This document shows, one piece after another, positions 10,332-26,101 of a stretch of DNA of 64,000 bases. Each line of letters starts with the position of its first letter. Position 1 is the stretch's first letter. The stretch covers positions 1,344,001 through 1,408,000 of the forward strand of contig CAVUAK010000001.1 in NCBI GenBank assembly GCA_963739455.1, written 5' to 3'. Source of the stretch: an uncultured Gemmatimonadales bacterium. Lineage in GTDB: Bacteria; Gemmatimonadota; Gemmatimonadetes; Gemmatimonadales; GWC2-71-9. The notes below the pieces were generated by a model. The model was given only the letters and a program-made list of their open reading frames with translations. It ran no database searches and was not told where the DNA came from. The position numbers were made by a program, and so were the translations under genes.

Positions 10332-11507
10332 ATGCACTTCGGCTCCCGCTCCCTGCTGCTCCTCCTCGGCGCCGTCAACGGTGCCATCCTCGCCGTGCCA
10401 TTGCTGCGCGCCCGGGTCAACCGGACGGCGAACCGCCTGCTGGCCGCCCTGATCCTCGTCACCGCCATCCGGCTGATCCCGTACGTCGTGGGCTATGCGG
10501 GGGCATATGACGAGCACCGATGGCTCACCTTCGCCCCGTTCGACCTCACCTTCGCGTTCGGGCCACTGCTCTGGGGCTATGTCGTGGTGCTCACCACCGG
10601 TGCGCTCCCGAGCCGGTGGCGGTGGCACTTCGTGCCCGTCGCGCTGCAGCTGGCATACTCGCTCGCCTGCTTCACGCTCCCGATCGATGCCAAGTGGGAC
10701 TGGTATACGGGGTGGCACCTGCACCTGGTGGACCCGGTCATGCTCGGCCTGTTGCTGGTGTCGCTCAGCGGGTACCTGGTGGCGGCGGGGCGCCAGTACC
10801 GACGCTATCTCACCTGGCTGGATGACCACCTCAGCAACAACGACGACGTACGCCTTGCCTGGCTCCGCAACATCCTCCTCGCCTTTGCGGCGACGGTCGC
10901 CGTCACCACCGGCTTCGCCCTCGCGGGATGGTTCGTGACCCCGCTCAACTTCTTCGATCGGTTCCCGGTGATGGTATGGCTCGCCGGGCTCACCTATTTC
11001 CTGGGTCTCGCGGGCTGGCGTGATGGTGAGCGACGCTATCCGCTCCCGTCGGATGTTGCCGACGGGCCGGCGCTGGTCCCATCCCGGCCCGAGCCGCGCG
11101 TCGACTACGCCGCCATCGCGAAGGGGTGGGTGAGCACCATCGAGGCAGGGGCGTGGTGCCGCGATGAGACGCTGACCCGGGAGCGGCTCGCCGAGCGACT
11201 GGGGACCTCGCCGAGGACACTGTCGCGCGTGCTGAATGAGGGGAGGGGGGAGAGCTTCCACCGCTTCATCAATGGGCTCAGGGTGCGGGCCGTGCAGCGG
11301 GAACTGGAGGATCCGGCTTCCGACCGGGACCTCCTGCAGGTGGCGCTCGATGCCGGCTTCTCGGCGAAGGCATCGTTCAACCGCGTCTTCAAGTCGGTGA
11401 CGGGCATGACACCCTCCACCTACCGGGAAATGGCCCGCTCGGGAGGTCTCACTTCGGGCCAAACCGTTGGAACGGCGGAAGCTGAGACGCAGACAAGGGG
11501 GGAGTAG
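10332..11507 (+). CDS. AraC-family regulator with N-terminal multi-TM sensor domain
   Basis: About six hydrophobic segments, then LAERLGTSPRTLSRVLN and VALDAGFSAKASFNRVFKSVTGMTPSTYR. Confidence 0.88.
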   Translation: MHFGSRSLLLLLGAVNGAILAVPLLRARVNRTANRLLAALILVTAIRLIPYVVGYAGAYDEHRWLTFAPFDLTFAFGPLLWGYVVVLTTGALPSRWRWHFVPVALQLAYSLACFTLPIDAKWDWYTGWHLHLVDPVMLGLLLVSLSGYLVAAGRQYRRYLTWLDDHLSNNDDVRLAWLRNILLAFAATVAVTTGFALAGWFVTPLNFFDRFPVMVWLAGLTYFLGLAGWRDGERRYPLPSDVADGPALVPSRPEPRVDYAAIAKGWVSTIEAGAWCRDETLTRERLAERLGTSPRTLSRVLNEGRGESFHRFINGLRVRAVQRELEDPASDRDLLQVALDAGFSAKASFNRVFKSVTGMTPSTYREMARSGGLTSGQTVGTAEAETQTRGE

Positions 11508-17283: not shown

Positions 17284-17371
17284 GGACGAACAAGGTACGG
17301 CATCGATGCCAACTGCGGGAAGAGGGAAGCGGGAAGAGGGGGTCTTGCGCGATTTCCCGATAACCTGTACT

Positions 17372-17461
17372 GTGTCTGCGCTTGACCGGGAGTCGCGTCC
17401 CAGAGGTCGTCGATCCAGAGCAGTGCCGCACGGCACCAGCAGGGTCGGCTATGGTGGCTGA
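17372..17461 (+). CDS. Putative leader peptide 1 (29 aa, Arg-rich, probably leaderless)
   Basis: GTG...TGA encodes MSALDRESRPRGRRSRAVPHGTSRVGYGG. TAACCT (17361-17366) lies 5 nt upstream. The stop overlaps the 5' arm of terminator 1. Confidence 0.45.
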   Translation: MSALDRESRPRGRRSRAVPHGTSRVGYGG

Positions 17462-17508
17462 GCCTGGCTCTCCCCCTACGACCACCGAGACGCGGCTCTT
17501 TTTGTTTT
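17460..17508 (+). terminator. Putative intrinsic terminator/attenuator 1
   Basis: Imperfect stem (GAGCC/GGCTC plus TCTC/GAGA) followed by TTTTTGTTTT. Confidence 0.5.
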
Positions 17509-17545
17509 CCGTCGATTGACGATTTCCTGATGTAAGGAGTGCACT

Positions 17546-17725
17546 GTGTCCGCGATGTCACGCAGGTCCATCCCAGCACGACCCTGCCGCTTGCATGGGG
17601 CAAAGGTGCGCACGGTCGCGCTCGCGACGGTGAAGGGGGACGTGTATGCGGACCGGCGAGCCTTGGTCGAGGGCGGTCGTGGAATTGATGCGATGCAGGT
17701 GGGGAGCGTGAACCGGGGGCCATAA
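17546..17725 (+). CDS. Putative leader peptide 2 (59 aa, ends NRGP-stop)
   Basis: AAGGAG SD (17534-17539), GTG 17546, TAA 17723-17725. MSAMSRRSIPARPCRLHGAKVRTVALATVKGDVYADRRALVEGGRGIDAMQVGSVNRGP. Confidence 0.65.
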   Translation: MSAMSRRSIPARPCRLHGAKVRTVALATVKGDVYADRRALVEGGRGIDAMQVGSVNRGP

Positions 17726-17760
17726 GCGGCCTGGGTTCGGCTCCATCGGGCGAGAGGATC

Positions 17761-17802
17761 GCCCCACCTGCGCAGAAGATGCCGGGTGGGGCTTTTTGTT
17801 TT
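17761..17802 (+). terminator. Intrinsic terminator/attenuator 2, with competing antiterminator 17695-17704
   Basis: GCCCCACCTG...CGGGTGGGGC stem followed by TTTTTGTTTT. GCAGGTGGGG (17695-17704) is the exact complement of 17762-17771. Confidence 0.8.
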
Positions 17803-17817
17803 CGGGAAGAGGAGTTT

Positions 17818-17830
17818 CGCTCTTTGACAA
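17818..17830 (+). promoter_or_regulatory. boxA antitermination element (NusB/NusE type)
   Basis: CGCTCTTTGACAA versus rrn boxA TGCTCTTTAACA. Lies just past the terminator and before the tRNA array. Confidence 0.7.
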
Positions 17831-17849
17831 CCGAAGGATGCGATGAAAA

Positions 17850-17913
17850 GACGTGATGACGTGAAGACGTGATGACGTGATGACGTGATGACGTGATGAC
17901 GTGATGACGTGAA
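17850..17913 (+). repeat. 8 x octamer GACGTGA(T/A)
   Basis: Direct reading. Same family at ~18088, ~18542, ~32683 and (reverse) ~44251. Confidence 0.95.
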
Positions 17914-18006
17914 GGAACTGCAGGCTGTGGCCGACGCGCGGATGGCGTTCTCATGCGAGACCGCGACTCCCGGATGGGGCGTCATTCGTTCGTCGTGCCA
18001 TTTCCT

Positions 18007-18078
18007 GAAGGCGTTGCGCAATGGGAGCGCGCCCGACTGTCTCTCGGGAGGGTGCGGGTTCGAATCCCGTCGGCTTCG
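18007..18078 (+). tRNA. tRNA-Asp(GTC), atypical, no encoded CCA
   Basis: Acceptor GAAGGCG/CGGCTTC (one G-G mismatch), D stem GCGC, anticodon stem CCCGA/TCGGG with loop CTGTCTC, T-loop TTCGAAT, G73. Confidence 0.8.
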
Positions 18079-18112
18079 TTGGTGCCGGACGTGAGGACGT
18101 GAGGGGTTATCC

Positions 18113-18185
18113 CAGGTGCGTAGCTCACTCGGCAGAGCGCGGGGATGTGGCCCCCGAGGAGGTGGTTCGAATCCGCCCCACCTGA
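18113..18185 (+). tRNA. tRNA-like gene with His(GTG) anticodon and irregular acceptor stem
   Basis: D stem GCTC/GAGC, anticodon stem CGGGG/CCCCG with loop ATGTGGC, TTCGAAT. Acceptor CAGGTG[C]G/CCACCTG needs a bulge. No G-1:C73. Confidence 0.65.
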
Positions 18186-18191
18186 TGTCAA

Positions 18192-18266
18192 CCGCCCGTA
18201 GCTGAGGCTGGGTCAAGCGCCCGTCTGATACACGGGAGCACGGAGGTTCGATTCCTCCCGGGCGGA
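18192..18266 (+). tRNA. tRNA-Ile(GAT), no CCA
   Basis: Acceptor CCGCCCG/CGGGCGG, anticodon stem CCCGT/ACGGG with loop CTGATAC, T arm GGAGG-TTCGATT-CCTCC, A73. Confidence 0.85.
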
Positions 18267-18277
18267 CTGCAGCACAA

Positions 18278-18350
18278 TCCTCGTAAGCATTGACGCGTGA
18301 TGCAGCGGGCTCTTAACCCGCAGAGCGGGGTTCGACTCCCCGACGGGGGA
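18278..18350 (+). tRNA. tRNA-Lys(CTT), atypical, no CCA
   Basis: Acceptor TCCTCGT/ACGGGGG (U1-G72), D stem GCAT/ATGC, anticodon stem GCGGG/CCCGC with loop CTCTTAA, TTCGACT. A instead of U8. Confidence 0.82.
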
Positions 18351-18353
18351 CTT

Positions 18354-18425
18354 GCTCCAGTGGCCGAGCGGCCGAGGCACCAGCCTTCCAAGCTGTGGAC
18401 GGGGGTTCGATTCCCTCCTGGAGCT
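18354..18425 (+). tRNA. tRNA-Gly(TCC), no CCA
   Basis: Acceptor GCTCCAG/CTGGAGC, loop CTTCCAA, TTCGATT, U73. Confidence 0.88.
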
Positions 18426-18462
18426 TTGAACTGCGGGGGACAGGGAACAGGGAACAGGAAAC

Positions 18463-18534
18463 GCGCGGATAGCTCAGCGGGAGAGCGCCGGTCTCACATA
18501 CCGGAAGGCGCTGGTTCAATCCCAGCTCCGCGTA
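18463..18534 (+). tRNA. tRNA-Val(CAC), no CCA
   Basis: Acceptor GCGCGGA/TCCGCGT, TAGCTCAGCGGGAGAGC, anticodon stem CCGGT/ACCGG with loop CTCACAT, TTCAATC, A73. Confidence 0.9.
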
Positions 18535-18593
18535 TCGTCATGACGTGAAGACGTGAGGACGTGAAGACGTGAGGAAACCGAAAGGAGGGTCAG

Positions 18594-19820
18594 GTGAAGA
18601 TCTTTGGAACGCACGACGACGAACACGCGGGCCCAGCTCGCCACAGGTGGCGGAGCGGGCCCGGAAGGTGGCGCTGATGGCCGACGGTCACGTGGGCTAC
18701 GTGATGCCGATCGGTGGAGTGGCGGCCTACGACAACGCGGTCTCGGTGGTGGGAGTGGGGTTCGATATCGCCTGCGGCAACGCCGCGATCCGGACCGACC
18801 TGACGCTGGCCGACCTGGGCGACACCGGTGACGCAGACCGCTCGAGCCTGACGAATCTGGCCGACGAGATCGCCGACACGGTGAGCTTCGGCGTCGGCCG
18901 GAAGAACCGGGCCGACGATGCGCCGACCGATCGATCCGCTGTTCGAGGACGCCGCGTGGGACGCCGTGCCGGCCAAGCATCGCCAGGCGCTCAGGACCAA
19001 GGCGCGCCAGCAGCTCGGCACGGTGGGAAGCGGCAACCACTACGTGGACGTCTTCGCCGACGAGGCGGGAGCGCTGTGGGTCGGCGTGCACTTCGGAAGC
19101 CGGGGATTCGGTCACACCGTCGCCTCGAACTTCCTGGCGCTGAGCCAGGGCAAGGCAAGTGGGGCGATCGGGCGCCCGAGGTCGAGGTGCTGCTGTCGCT
19201 CGACCAGCCGCTGGGTCACGACTACTGGGCCCTGATGGAGCTGGCGGGTCGCTACGCCTACGCCGGCCGGGAGTGGGTGGCCCGGAAGGTGGTCTCGATC
19301 CTCGGCGGGCGGGAGCTGGAGCTGGTGCACAACCATCACAACTTCGCCTGGAAGGAGCAGCACGAGGGCGAGGAGCTGGTGGTGGTGCGGAAGGGAGCGA
19401 CGCCGGCGTTCCCGGGTCAGCTCGGCTTCATCGGCGGATCGATGGGTGACGATGCGGTGATCGTGCGGGGCGCCGACGTCAGGAGATGCAGCGGTCGCCG
19501 AGACGCAGCGAGAGGCGCTCTACTCGACGGTGCACGGGGCCGGGCGAGTGATGAGCCGGACCGCCGCGGCCGGCAAGCGGAACCGGAAGACCGGGGAGAT
19601 CCTGACGCCGGGACGGGTCACGCCCGAGATGATGAAGGGCTGGATCGCGGAGAAGGGTGTGGTACTGCGGGGCGGAGGGCTCGACGAGAGCCCGCAGGTC
19701 TACCGCCGGCTGCCGGACGTCCTGGCGGCGCAGGGCGACACCATCGAGGTCCTGCACACGCTCCGGCCGCTCATCGTGGTCATGGCTGGAGCGAATGAGT
19801 TCGATCCGTACAAGGACTGA
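18594..19820 (+). CDS. rtcB: RNA ligase RtcB (several apparent frameshifts)
   Basis: AAAGGAGG SD plus GTG. Motifs across frames: LMADGHVGYVMPIGGV, VGFDIACGN, QLGTVGSGNHY, VHFGSRGFG, HNHHNFAW, VRKGATPA, GGSMG, HGAGR, DESPQVYR. Confidence 0.9.
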
Positions 19821-19936
19821 ACAGCGTTAGGAGGAACTGCAGGAGCATAAGGAGGAACTGCGACAGCGGGTGCTGCGTGGGCCGTCCGCAGTTGCTGTTC
19901 CTCCTCACGTTCTTCTGTTCCTCCTCACGCTGTTCA
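19818..19936. repeat. Long imperfect inverted repeat (REP-like hairpin of AGGAGGAAC/GTTCCTCCT units)
   Basis: TGAACAGCG...CGCTGTTCA ends. Related copies at ~60027-60150 and (partial) ~57200-57235. Confidence 0.8.
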
Positions 19937-19940
19937 TCAC

Positions 19941-20015
19941 TGCTCCGTGGCCGAACGGATTCAAGGCACCCGGCTTCGACCCGGGAGATTGAGGGTTCGA
20001 CTCCCTCCGGGGCAT
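19941..20015 (+). tRNA. tRNA-Arg(TCG), atypical, no CCA
   Basis: Acceptor TGCTCCG/CGGGGCA, D loop with GG then A20, anticodon stem CCCGG/CCGGG with loop CTTCGAC, T arm GAGGG-TTCGACT-CCCTC. Confidence 0.82.
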
Positions 20016-20076
20016 TCTGTCCATCGCATCCATCGGTTGACACACGGACACTCATGCAGGTGGAAGGGAGGGGACC

Positions 20077-20578
20077 ATGTTGCTGTGCCTGGTATACAAC
20101 ACGACCGGAGAGCCGATCGAGCTCGTGCCGTCGCTCATGGGCCTCGTGCTTCACCTGCGGGGCAAGGCGGTGATCCTGGAGACGGTGCCGGGGCGGTTCG
20201 CGCGAAGCCCGCGACTCAGTCTTCCCGCTGCCGGCAAGCGTAGTGCTGCGACAGCACCGGCGAATCGGGTCACGCGTGGCGGCCCTGACCAACGAGCACC
20301 TGTTCCTGCGGGACGGGCACCGGTGCGCGTACTGCGGGCGGCATCGCCGGGAGCTTGGTGCACGGGAGCGACTGACCCGTGACCACCTGGTGCCGCGGTC
20401 AAAGGGAGGAGCCGACACCTGGCTCAACGTGGTAACCGCATGCAGTTCGTGCAATCACGAGAAGAACGACAAGCTACTGAAGGATGCGGGCCGGAAGCCA
20501 CGGGTGGATCCGTGGGAGCCTTCGCGAGGCGAGCTGGTGACGCGACGGCTGTCGGCTCGACAGGCCACAGTGGCATGA
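20077..20578 (+). CDS. HNH endonuclease (McrA/COG1403-like), one apparent frameshift near 20230
   Basis: SD GGGAGG. RDGHRCAYCG, TRDHLVPRSKGG.DTW.NVVTACSSCNHEK. Confidence 0.85.
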
Positions 20579-20590
20579 AAGGAGACGACA

Positions 20591-20905
20591 ATGACAAGCG
20601 CCCGAACAAAGCGAGAGGAGGGATCGGCGGAGATCACGGCAGGCAGCTACTTCGTGGTTACGGGCGCGCACTTCTCGGCCTGGGTGAGCACGGAGATGGC
20701 CCGCCACATCGAGGCTTGCCTCGACGCGACGCCGCGTCCGGAGTGGATCGCGTTCGTCGACCTCAGCGGAGCACGCATCCGCCTCCGAAGCGGGCAGATC
20801 CAGTCGATCTGCCAGAGCACGGTGGAGCAGCGCCAGGTGTATCGTGACTTGTGGCGCGCGCTGCAGCAGGAGAAGCAGGCCGATCGTCGGCCCGACGAAT
20901 ACTGA
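20591..20905 (+). CDS. Small hypothetical protein, 104 aa
   Basis: AAGGAG SD right after the HNH stop. No family recognised. Confidence 0.65.
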   Translation: MTSARTKREEGSAEITAGSYFVVTGAHFSAWVSTEMARHIEACLDATPRPEWIAFVDLSGARIRLRSGQIQSICQSTVEQRQVYRDLWRALQQEKQADRRPDEY

Positions 20906-20959
20906 GTAACGAGCGCGTGACGCGTCGACGCGCCAGAAAGGGGGTATTATGGTGAAGTG

Positions 20960-20984
20960 GCCTCCCGGCAACGGGAGGCTCTTC
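20960..20984 (+). terminator. GC hairpin (terminator of the tRNA/rtcB operon, or 5' hairpin of dps mRNA)
   Basis: GCCTCCCG-GCAA-CGGGAGGC followed by TCTT. TATTAT at 20945-20950. Confidence 0.5.
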
Positions 20985-21009
20985 ATCCAGCTTTTCAGGA
21001 GAGGTTCCC

Positions 21010-21573
21010 ATGTCACGTACCGCTGCCCCATCCCGTCCCGCTCGCCGCTCCCAATCGCCCAACGGATCCGCGGCGGACAGCACCCGGCTTTACACGACCA
21101 AGAATGACCTGCCCCACGATACCCGGGTCCAGGTCGTCGAACTTCTCAGCCAGCGCCTGGCGGATGTGCTCGACCTGCAGTCCCATTGCAAGCAGGCGCA
21201 CTGGAACGTGAAGGGTCCTCACTTCATCGCGCTGCACAAGCTGTTCGATGAGATCGCGGAGGAGGTGGAGGACTACGTGGACGTCATCGCCGAGCGGATT
21301 GTGCAGCTGGGTGGCGTGGCAGAGGGCACGGTGCGGGCGGTGGCTGCGAAGTCGGCGCTGATCGACTATCCGCTGGCGCTCAGCAGCGGCGAGGAGCATG
21401 TCGCCGCGCTCTCCGATTCCCTGTCGCAGTTCGGGCGGACCGTGCGGATGGGCATTGAAGAGATGGGCGAACTGGAAGACGCCGACTCGGCGGACATCCT
21501 GACGGGGGTATCACGCGGCATCGACAAGTGGCTCTGGTTTGTCGAGGCACACCAGCAGGGGCGCAACGGCTAG
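21010..21573 (+). CDS. dps: DNA starvation/stationary-phase protection protein Dps
   Basis: KQAHWNVKGPHFIALHKLFDE, DVIAERIVQLGG, DKWLWFVEAH. Confidence 0.93.
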   Translation: MSRTAAPSRPARRSQSPNGSAADSTRLYTTKNDLPHDTRVQVVELLSQRLADVLDLQSHCKQAHWNVKGPHFIALHKLFDEIAEEVEDYVDVIAERIVQLGGVAEGTVRAVAAKSALIDYPLALSSGEEHVAALSDSLSQFGRTVRMGIEEMGELEDADSADILTGVSRGIDKWLWFVEAHQQGRNG

Positions 21574-23673: not shown

Positions 23674-26101
23674 ATGGAGCCGCTGGGCCAGGGTGGCATG
23701 GCCACGGTCTGGCTCGCGCGCGACCTGAAGCACGATCGCCTGGTCGCCATCAAGCTGCTCCGCCCGGAACTCGCGGTTCCGGTGGGTGCCGACCGCTTTG
23801 CCAGCGAGATCGGCATCGTCGCCAAGCTCAACCATCCCAACATTCTCGGTGTGCTCGACTCGGGCGTCGTGCAGATCGACGGCGTGACCGCGCCGTACTA
23901 TGTCATGCCCCATGTCGAGGGTCCGTCACTCAGTGCACTGCTGAGCCGGGGCGAGAAGCTCGAGGTAAACGAGGCGCTGCGGCTTGCTGCGGAGGTTGCC
24001 GATGCGCTGGCCTTCGCGCACTCGCGCGGGGTGGTGCATCGCGACGTGAAGCCGGGCAACATCCTGATCCAGGCGGGCCACGCGCTGGTGGCCGACTTCG
24101 GGGTCGCGATCGCGCTCGACGCGGCGACGAGGGGCGGCCGGAACACGATGTCGGGCGAGATCCTGGGGACACCGGTGTACATGAGCCCGGAGCAGGCATC
24201 GGGAGCGACGCGGCTCGACGGGCGGAGCGACATCTACAGCCTCGGTTGCGTGCTGTACGAAATGCTCTCGGGCGACCCGCCGTTCACCGGGAACACGCCG
24301 CAGGCGATGATCGTGGCGCACCTGAGCGAGCCGCCGCCGCCACTGGCATCGAAGCGGCCGGGCATCTCGCCAGCGCTTGCGGCGACGGTGCATCGCGCGC
24401 TGGAGAAGAAGCCGAGCGATCGCTACGCCAATGCCGGTGAGTTCCGGGATGCACTCGAGCGGCTTCGCACGTCCATCGCGCTTCGCCGGCAGTGGTGGCC
24501 GACGGCGGCACTGGTGGTCGCGGTCGCCGCGTTCTTCTGGTGGAGTCCGTGGCGGCGTCGCGCCGGCGAGGCGGCACCGGGGGGGGAGACGGTGGTGCTG
24601 CTGAGCGGCTTCAGGGATCGAAGCGGCACGATGCGGGCGGAAGGTGCGGCGCTCGACGACGCGATGCGGCTCGAATTGCAGAAGGTGCCCGGGCTCAAGG
24701 TGATCGACGTTGGTGACCAGCCCGAATTGCCGGTGGACACGCTGCGCAAGCGCTACCGGGCCGACTGGATCATCCGCGGGGTGGTAGACCAGATCGGAGA
24801 TAGTGTCGGCGCCACAGTGCGCGTGGTGGATGCCAGCAATGGCGCCGAGGTGCGAAGTGGGATGCTGCGGCAGGCGTCGCCCGCCACGCTGCAGGCGGCG
24901 GCAACGGCACTTGGCGAGGAGAGCCTGTTCGGGACGGTGCGGTACGCGATGGATTCGGTGCTGCATAGACCGCTGGTTGCTCGAGCCTCGGTGCCGATAG
25001 CGCAACGGCCGAGTGCGCGCGCGCGTGCACGGGTCGATCGTGGCGCGAGCGAAAGACGCGCTGACCTCGGTAGGGCCGCGACGCATGCTGGAGGAACTGG
25101 CCCTTGCTGATTCCCTGCTCGCCGTCGGCACCGGACCGTCGTCCCTCCAGCGCCCTGGCGCCGTACGCCCGCGCCGAACTCGGCAACGACGTCGGCTTCG
25201 CGCTCCTGGCGGCGTGGCAGTACTTCCCCGACTCCACCTGGCTTCCGCAGCCGACCGAGGCACTCCTGCAAGGCGCTGCCATTCGCCAGCGAGGCGATCA
25301 AGCGCGCGCCCGAGTCGGCCGATGCCTGGTTCCTCAGGAGCAAGATCTACGGCTGGCTGCTGCTGGCAACGGCCGACACCGGCCTGGCGCGACAGCGCGC
25401 TAGCCGACCTGCGCAAGGCGAGTTCCCTCGCCGGTGGGCGAGCCGATATCTGGGCAAGGCGCGCAGACGTCGAGCACATGGCTGGCCGGTCGGCTGACGC
25501 GCGTTTCTCTGCGGAACAGGGCCAGGCGGTGGACTACCTGCACACCCACGCCGAGACGCTGCTCAGTAGTCGTGCCGGGGCGGAAATGGTATTGGGTGAG
25601 TACGGCAGGGCTCGGGAGAGTTGCCGCGCCGGGTCGCGCCAGTTTCCTGGCAATCCCTATTTCATCCCTTGCGAAGCGGAGGTGCTCGGCCGCAGCTCCC
25701 GGGCTCCGCGGGACGCCGCCACGATAGTAGCGCTCGCGGATTCTCTCGACGAGTATGGAACAGGGTACGTGTCACGCATCATGCCCGATGACATCCGGTT
25801 CTGGGCCGTTGCGATCCTGGCGCGGGCCAGCCAGCACGCCGCCGCCGCACGCCTGTACGATGGGGTCGCGGGCGGCTGGCACGGTGCGGTCGATGCTAAC
25901 CTGTTGTTGGAGGCCGCCTACGCGCGACAAGCCATGGGCGACCGGGACAGCGCCCTGGCCCTGGCGGCGCGCGCTGTACAGCAGGACCCTGGCACTGTCG
26001 GAAGCTTCGAGCGCCTTCGATGGTTTCAGCCCCTCCGCGACCACCCGCTCTTCTCCGCTGCGATGAAGGGGATCCCGCCGACAGAGGCTGAACGTCGCTG
26101 A
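23674..26101 (+). CDS. Ser/Thr protein kinase with TM segment and TPR-like C-terminus (frameshifted ~24960-25290)
   Basis: LGQGGMATV, VAIK, HRDVKPGN, DFG, GTPVYMSPEQ, DIYSLG. Confidence 0.82.

Follow-up and report, generated by a model that had tools for sequence, protein, structure and literature searches.

How is an operon that joins spare tRNA genes to an RNA-repair ligase controlled if no regulator gene stands beside it? This question is raised by a cassette on the forward strand of a 64,000-nt stretch of DNA from an uncultured Gemmatimonadales bacterium (assembly GCA_963739455.1, contig CAVUAK010000001.1, positions 1,344,001 to 1,408,000), which is called the window here and to which the coordinates refer. 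Downstream of a long leader, the cassette comprises seven tRNA genes, the ligase gene rtcB, a gene for an HNH endonuclease and an open reading frame (ORF) for an orphan protein of 104 amino acids (aa). A sequence-only reading of the window had found neither RtcR nor rtcA nearby. This absence extends to the source genome (G000; 3.6 Mb in 4 contigs, 83.7% complete), in which neither RtcR nor RtcA was matched, and a TROVE match indicating Rsr was not obtained in it either. Two adjacent genes with WYL domains (G000:C1:1315790-1316976) are located about 45 kb upstream of the cassette and outside the window. Based on the comparison with related loci, we consider it rather likely that the cassette is a Gemmatimonadota operon for RNA repair and spare tRNAs which is held off by a tandem RNA attenuator sensing the ribosome. 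The leader comprises the following elements, for which the z-scores compare the fold of a hairpin with that of shuffled sequences.

17345..17373, forward strand: predicted sigma70-type promoter with -35 TTGCGC (17345-17350) and -10 TACTGT (17368-17373)
17388..17401, forward strand: invariant 14-mer GGGAGTCGCGTCCC, the 5' arm of T1
17388..17508, forward strand: terminator-like hairpin T1, 3' arm at 17489-17498 followed by a U tract, z -3.75
17533..17725, forward strand: Shine-Dalgarno sequence (17533-17539) and leader ORF of 59 codons (GTG at 17546 to TAA at 17725)
17695..17704, forward strand: antiterminator GCAGGTGGGG inside the leader ORF, a perfect complement of 10 bp to the 5' arm of T2
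17761..17802, forward strand: intrinsic terminator T2, hairpin at 17761-17792 and U tract, z -5.05
17819..17830, forward strand: rrn-type boxA
17927..18001, forward strand: hairpin H3, z -3.57; its apical loop (17961-17971) displays the complement of the 14-mer, CGCGACUCCC

The antiterminator, the invariant 14-mer and H3 were absent from the sequence-only reading. A simple terminator scan missed both T1 and T2, and the promoter was not picked up by a consensus scan. An Rfam scan of the leader (17300-18010) gave five matches, all with E of at least 1.5 and far below gathering, and no second copy of the leader was found in this genome.

The comparison is based on several sets of loci. The RtcB of G008, a relative whose locus shows the flanks and the gene order of the window with 14 tRNAs, was used as query and matched 65 of 300 other genomes of the family. 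Together with the window locus and two loci from another family, these form a set of 68 rtcB loci; the unpublished G268 is included in its tallies of tRNA, HNH, Rsr and orphan genes, and the unpublished G314 and G218 are part of the denominator. A first set of leaders comprises 45 loci, with G468b excluded (promoter and T1 not called). A wide scan for promoter plus 14-mer over 185,579 species gave at least 120 loci, and an independent set of new leaders, picked by these two features alone, was obtained by excluding the 10 of 120 that had already been seen. The cargo was determined for 65 new leaders, excluding loci with less than 1500 nt downstream. Furthermore, 40 T2 sites were found via rtcB or the orphan gene and are referred to as gene-selected.

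The features of an attenuator, namely a leader ORF with a ribosome-binding site and a fixed distance to an intrinsic terminator, were found in module 2 (leader ORF, antiterminator and T2) only. An ORF of at least 30 codons stops 27-46 nt before T2 in 41 of the 45 leaders, compared to a mean of 7.4 and a maximum of 15 in 200 rounds of shuffling. The same placement of the stop was determined for 58 of 63 new leaders (100 rounds; mean 10.3, maximum 17), and of the 68 new leaders followed by 900 nt or more of sequence, 55 have T2. The peptides encoded in module 2 differ between loci; the frame of the window ORF is retained in G008 and shows no bias of GC content by codon position (0.68/0.66/0.71). 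Since leaders without the 14-mer retain a short hairpin, the ORF and T2, module 2 can be regarded as the core of the leader.

In the antiterminator fold of the window (z -4.76), 17695-17704 and the T2 arm form a helix, with the stop codon enclosed between the two strands. Across the leaders, complementarity to the T2 arm is highest 80-50 nt upstream of T2, in the last codons of the ORF (mean longest run 5.7 and 5.5 vs about 4), with the end of the antiterminator core most often 25 nt before the stop. The two strands change together, as can be seen from the matched pairs of arms CCTGCGC/GCGCAGG, CCCGCGC/GCGCGGG, CCTGTGC/GCACAGG, CCTGCAC/GTGCAGG and CCCCGTG/CACGGG. When the T2 arms were paired with swapped instead of their own upstream segments, a permutation p of 0.016 resulted for the set of 45, and none of 20,000 permutations was as good for the new set. 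By comparison of loci, the parts of the leader, the fixed position of the stop and the covarying alternative helix, as well as the cargo described below, are thus recognisable, and the assignment of the control region to a variant of ribosome-mediated attenuation is well supported by these sequence patterns.

The sequence-only reading had described two modules of leader ORF plus terminator. Both hairpins and the second ORF hold, but the first ORF has to be dropped: complete small ORFs lie within the T1 module in 81 of 144 cases compared to a shuffle mean of 96, and the AUG found after the 14-mer in 82 of 144 cases is random in frame and length and paired in the stem. Its proposal of control by RNA in cis therefore finds comparative support for module 2, but not for module 1, where the ORF test was negative.

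From this arrangement we infer the direction of the switch and a silent operon during normal growth. The near-consensus promoter would fire, and most transcripts would end at one of the two terminators. A ribosome on the leader ORF of 40-120 codons would decide the outcome at T2, irrespective of the peptide sequence. A ribosome that reaches the stop 27-50 nt before T2 would melt the segment which the antiterminator helix must close, so that T2 forms and transcription terminates. If the ribosome stalls earlier due to a broken tRNA, an antibiotic or a ribotoxin, the antiterminator would pair with the 5' arm of T2 as it emerges and permit read-through. The boxA would then load an rRNA-type Nus complex for the transcription of the long untranslated run of tRNAs.

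The boxA had also been recognised in the sequence-only reading, and the 3.6-Mb genome has three exact copies of its core CTCTTTGACAA, one here and two at the rRNA genes (16S leader and 16S-23S spacer). A tRNA or T-loop RNA follows in 13 of 16 leaders with boxA vs 11 of 49 without (p 4e-5), and some tRNA arrays have no boxA. Compared to the antitermination of rRNA operons by boxA and Nus factors, the core sequence is identical to both rRNA sites of the genome, whereas the position before a tRNA array and downstream of an attenuator differs. In the rRNA operon itself (G000:C1:2580389 onward), the 16S-23S spacer contains no tRNA, and tRNA-Ile and tRNA-Ala stand alone on C3.

As the sequence-only reading had expected, the architecture is conserved in relatives. 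Promoter, invariant 14-mer, T1, ORF, T2, boxA and H3 can be aligned, and G008 shows the same order. The promoter is aligned and conserved in three loci of the same genus, and a promoter of the form TTG...TAnnnT precedes most true leaders. The 14-mer gave 58 exact matches in 47 of 301 genomes of the phylum vs 7 for the reversed control, some of them by chance. Among the matches listed for leaders with the 14-mer, 77 of 80 titles name lineages of the Gemmatimonadota, to which we assume Longimicrobium to belong, while two read 'bacterium' and one Kofleriaceae. A phage origin of the cassette was rejected: no phage DNA match was found, RtcB was at most 51.5% identical, and the viral matches are not leaders (none of 95 viral 14-mer matches with two further leader features). 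No plasmid match to the cassette was found either.

Within 3 kb of the 65 new leaders, the orphan gene was found 24 times, Rsr 22, RtcB 21, tRNA 17, Usp 4, HNH 2 and a DksA-like gene once, and at least one core gene (orphan, Rsr, RtcB, tRNA or HNH) occurs near 53 of the 65. Hen1 is present in five leader loci and Pnkp in four (L260, L261, L267, L274, L280). As judged from these sequences, the leader is conserved across the Gemmatimonadota before RtcB, Rsr, Hen1-Pnkp, tRNAs and the orphan ORF. The 68 rtcB loci show adjacent tRNAs in 12 cases (1-17 genes), HNH in 8, Rsr in 7, the orphan ORF in 21 and dps in 2. Arrays of 12-17 tRNAs occur in G008, G009, G085, G210 and G248, compared to 6+1 in the window; the spread of the arrays is patchy (12 of 68), yet the gene order is common within the phylum. 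The Y RNA-like genes of the relatives were judged by eye and by a 120-nt match to the tRNA model, while the Rfam YrlA model gave no score.

Some loci deviate from this pattern. The leaders L193, L194, L195 and L202 as well as L166, L167 and L177 stand before genes for DksA/TraR-like zinc-finger, Usp and CdiI-like proteins, and L195 comprises T1 alone, without T2. L113 (G230), upstream of rtcB, has neither T1 nor a leader ORF, and its promoter runs into T2 and H3. Two other classes of RtcB (about 570 and 335 bits; L005-L024) occur in relatives without adjacent tRNAs.

Several points weigh against the proposed attenuation of an RNA-repair operon. The unrestricted test of duplex energies is weak (only 7 of 45 loci were equalled by no more than 3 of 60 shuffles, one of the 7 at a different place), many antiterminators comprise just 5-7 bp, and the permutation p-values are overstated because the loci are related and not independent. 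An antiterminator core about 25 nt before the stop would be at the margin of a terminating ribosome or outside it, so that the core could only be blocked indirectly. Furthermore, no core gene lies within 3 kb of 12 of the 65 leaders, leaders precede Usp or DksA-like genes in some loci, and many rtcB genes of the clade lack such a leader. Finally, rtcB and the HNH gene are frameshifted in the assembly of the window. The cargo and the end of the cassette comprise the following features.

18006..18534, forward strand: six divergent tRNA genes, Asp(GTC), His(GTG), Ile(GAT), Lys(CTT), Gly(TCC) and Val(CAC), determined by ARAGORN and Rfam
18006-18079, forward strand: tRNA-Asp(GTC), the first of these, by ARAGORN
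18594..19820, forward strand: rtcB, PF01139 in pieces
19941..20015, forward strand: tRNA-Arg(TCG), sole copy of that anticodon found in the genome
20077..20578, forward strand: HNH endonuclease gene, PF01844 and PF14279, one frameshift near 20220
20591..20905, forward strand: orphan protein of 104 aa, a recurrent member of the regulon
20957..20981, forward strand: terminal hairpin, z -3.84, directly upstream of dps

RtcB, HNH and the 104-aa ORF had all been named in the sequence-only reading and are present, but the distribution of rtcB over several frames and the frameshift in the HNH gene had not been mentioned. The frameshifts in rtcB, the only rtcB found in the genome, are located near 18619, 18644, 18932, 19141-19157 and 19474. 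The gene shows about 90% DNA identity to the intact gene of G008, and its pieces contain the metal-binding and catalytic motifs when aligned to the RtcB of P. horikoshii via the G008 protein. The HNH orthologue in G008 is likewise intact (165 aa).

One explanation would be that the cassette is a decaying relic that has already lost Rsr and seven tRNAs and whose rtcB and HNH genes have become pseudogenes. Five clusters of frameshifts within 1.7 kb, a density above the genome mean, are in line with this, as are the higher number of tRNAs and the extra DNA at the orphan position in G008 and the relative in run X5, and the decayed tRNA array of G006. However, 95 frame-breaking indels compared to G008 were counted in 113,985 aligned coding bases, including three double counts and possibly some alignment noise at 80-86% identity. 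Most of them are one extra base here, they cluster in patches, and the six at the cassette reach a density similar to that of other patches. In addition, the breaks can be explained without any in-frame stop, the leader is intact, and 63 of the 65 RtcB matches in the family are open in a single frame over the greater part of the query. We therefore regard the frameshifts in rtcB and HNH, with good confidence, as errors of the assembly, and a relic as unlikely. A protein kinase gene elsewhere in the window (23674-26101) is split in two frames compared to a longer ORF in G008, which is probably an assembly error.

G008 shows tRNA-like RNAs and rsr at the position of the orphan ORF, and a contig in run X5 comprises 352 extra letters in the tRNA array and 1970 letters replacing the orphan ORF; contigs in runs X2 and X9 span the orphan ORF. 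Since G008 and X5 carry more than the window, the window cassette is, as far as the alignments indicate, a reduced copy that lacks Rsr and Y RNAs. Tandem repeats of 8 nt and 7 nt, as well as the hairpin behind rtcB, were rejected as features of the cassette. These short tandem repeats and the long hairpin (17851-17915, 18428-18462, 18536-18575 and 19821-19935) belong to an intergenic filler found throughout the genome (115 and 39 matches to the patterns; related words in 44-82 copies).

The seven tRNA genes in one orientation, as given in the sequence-only reading, were all found by ARAGORN; six reach the Rfam gathering score, and tRNA-Lys was determined with 40.2 bits. The order of the six recurs inside the 14-gene array of G008. 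A tRNA-Gly(CCC) indicated by ARAGORN at 11008-11095 is unmatched by Rfam and probably false. The assumption that the tRNAs are supernumerary agrees with separate housekeeping copies for six of the seven, Arg(TCG) being the exception. The genes diverge in a conserved manner. The G-1/C73 pair is the identity signal for HisRS, while A73 ends 11 of the 18 regulon tRNA-His genes, and G-1 is missing from the window copy. Position 37 is normally a purine, while a pyrimidine was determined in 9 of 17 regulon tRNA-Asp genes. The array tRNAs may act as decoys, or as backups beyond the reach of anticodon nucleases. Charging was reported for 23 of 26 array tRNAs in Anabaena (PMC8421152).

For the orphan protein, which has 17 relatives besides itself, a Pfam or NCBIfam family was not found. 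Its model shows a small Sm/SH3-like barrel plus a helix (pLDDT 79). The best match in the fold search had a Z of 5.2 and Rv3208A an E of 0.07, both of which are weak; the lack of a match above Z 5.2 is uninformative on novelty in either direction. Due to the weakness of these matches, binding of RNA by the modelled protein is only a guess. The terminal hairpin is also present between rsr and dps in G008 and may end the cassette or be part of the dps leader. In the window, dps (21010-21573) follows directly after the cassette, and a promoter-like site is located at about 20925-20953.

The first gate, T1, raises a question of its own. The 14-mer that forms its 5' arm is all-or-none: it is exact in 30 of the 40 gene-selected T2 sites, while none shows it with 1-3 mismatches. 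Since these sites were selected by genes, the invariance is not an effect of selection by the motif. The loops of T1 range from about 20 to 95 nt, and changes in the 3' arm mostly preserve pairing (mainly G-U-compatible), while the 5' arm never changes. Sensing of tRNA-Glu(UUC) halves by the T1 arm was rejected: the 9-nt match seen here is absent from leader-bearing genomes such as G194, G119, G059 and G358.

As the best candidate for an element that could open T1, H3 was analysed by folding each locus separately, since RNAalifold gave 8 pairs on a poor MAFFT alignment. H3 folds in 37 of 37 loci to a long stem of 29-39 pairs with the complement of the 14-mer at its tip (mean z -3.9; below -2 in 33 of 37), and CGCGAC in the loop is unpaired with a probability of 0.76-1.0. 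The duplex of H3 with the T1 arm was calculated to -28.4 kcal/mol compared to -20.5 kcal/mol for the T1 arm. H3 was found at 26 of the 30 sites with the 14-mer arm (28 with a looser stem cut-off) vs 1 of 10 without (p 2e-5). Because the 14-mer never varies, no compensatory change is seen; neither arm nor loop varies enough for it, and co-occurrence alone is observed. Variant H3 loops in cis occur in G479, G374, G494 and the second leader of G488. Seven leaders have no H3, and for three of them (G059, G458, G005) no other exact H3 motif occurs in the genome. A supply of H3 from elsewhere in H3-less genomes was rejected: among the 10 searched, a separate H3 was found in G408 alone, behind T2, and probably belongs to its own leader, divided by a contig end. 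Owing to the seven H3-less leaders and the three without the motif elsewhere, pairing of the H3 loop with the T1 5' arm is plausible from the sequences but unproven.

If this pairing occurs, a protein-free, self-amplifying switch can tentatively be proposed. Stalling would open T2, H3 would be released by tRNA processing and act on new transcripts, and its loop would capture the 5' arm of T1 and thereby open the first gate. Backup of tRNAs and RNA repair would then climb steeply during stalling.

Alternatively, a protein regulator could dominate, with the 14-mer, directly behind the predicted start site, and its inverted copy 300-700 bp downstream serving as two protein sites, bound by one repressor through DNA looping or by one RNA-binding protein, while the attenuator would tune expression. 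A motif that never varies, leaders without H3 and the presence of a WYL pair in the genome would agree with this, and it is possible that 14-mer and H3 share a protein ligand. On the other hand, all 37 loci present the downstream copy in the loop at the tip of a hairpin of 29-39 pairs, which would be needless for a DNA operator, the T1 3' arm changes mostly in a G-U-compatible manner, and no regulator gene recurs beside the leaders. Since a protein would also leave the position of the stop and the covariation with T2 unexplained, a dominant protein regulator appears rather improbable. Least probable is an attenuator of opposite sign or a homeostat, in which leader translation promotes read-through and ties expression to growth: the geometry leaves the sign unfixed, with the antiterminator core just outside the terminating ribosome, and induction of bmrCD in B. 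subtilis requires leader translation (PMC4191407), but a ribosome at a stop 27-50 nt before T2 is too distant to cover T2, and where cargo such as RtcB, Rsr, Hen1-Pnkp and spare tRNAs has been studied, stress induces it (PMC8421152, PMC7790460).

The combination of genes, which the sequence-only reading was not aware of as a described system, is not new, since HNH, rtcB and dpsA were already reported beside cyanobacterial L-arrays, where they are co-induced by chloramphenicol through promoter repeats (PMC8421152). The Gemmatimonadota arrays resemble these L-arrays in their supernumerary tRNAs, their HNH, rtcB and dps neighbours and their patchy spread, while they are shorter (1-17 vs up to 43 genes). 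By analogy, a role in a response to translational stress is likely. In the survey of L-arrays, three Gemmatimonadetes genomes are included, with no array above 8 genes among the rows listed (PMC8421152). The control differs: the trn operon of Anabaena PCC 7120 is repressed by TrcR at direct repeats in the promoter, over the -10 box (PMC10272220), whereas an RNA attenuator and boxA are found here. A search for the TrcR-type repeat (shorter published pattern, at most 2 mismatches) gave two matches in the window, neither at the promoter.

The rsr-yrlBA-rtcBA operon of Salmonella, controlled by RtcR (PMC7790460; Y RNAs, PMC4201824), is similar in that RtcB occurs with Rsr and tRNA-like RNAs in the relatives (Rsr in 7 of 68 rtcB loci and 22 of 65 leaders). 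It differs from the present genome, in which RtcA, RtcR and Rsr are unmatched and the promoter is of the sigma70 type. Ribosome-sensing attenuation in place of RtcR or TrcR would fit the sequence patterns. Leader ORFs that sense antibiotics are known from bmrB-bmrCD of B. subtilis and toiL of E. coli (PMC4191407, PMC12121999), which likewise use a leader ORF and alternative RNA structures to sense impaired translation. Compared to these, the leader described here has a longer ORF, a non-conserved peptide and an extra terminator upstream, and it would control tRNA and RNA-repair genes phylum-wide; toiL moreover acts via translation initiation and Rho (PMC12121999). Synthetic small transcription activating RNAs (STARs; PMC5648800) resemble the proposed action of H3, since an intrinsic terminator could be kept from forming by an RNA that complements its 5' arm, but they are engineered and have long linear binding regions, while the seed in H3 is an 11-nt loop, encoded downstream of T1 on one and the same transcript. 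A word search of PMC5725501 gave no mention of tRNA, and no description of the leader, or of such control of RNA repair in these bacteria of soil and sediment, was found in the literature searched, which omits most subscription papers. Altogether, the tRNA-rtcB-HNH cargo is of known kinds, and the new part is the leader with its phylum-wide regulon.

In the operons for RNA repair and spare tRNAs described so far, proteins act as switches: RtcR senses broken tRNA and TrcR represses. The Gemmatimonadota instead appear to read the progress of the ribosome by an RNA attenuator, so that one signal would govern RtcB, Rsr, Hen1-Pnkp and the arrays of tRNAs alike. The leader serves as a sequence marker for this regulon and links a family of orphan proteins to it; with the leader, the part that cryptic tRNA arrays play can be tested by means of a small, portable reporter. 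Should H3 indeed act in trans to open T1, an intrinsic terminator would have a natural activator made of RNA, and the self-amplifying switch would be a natural counterpart of the STARs, providing positive feedback over a phylum-wide RNA-repair regulon.

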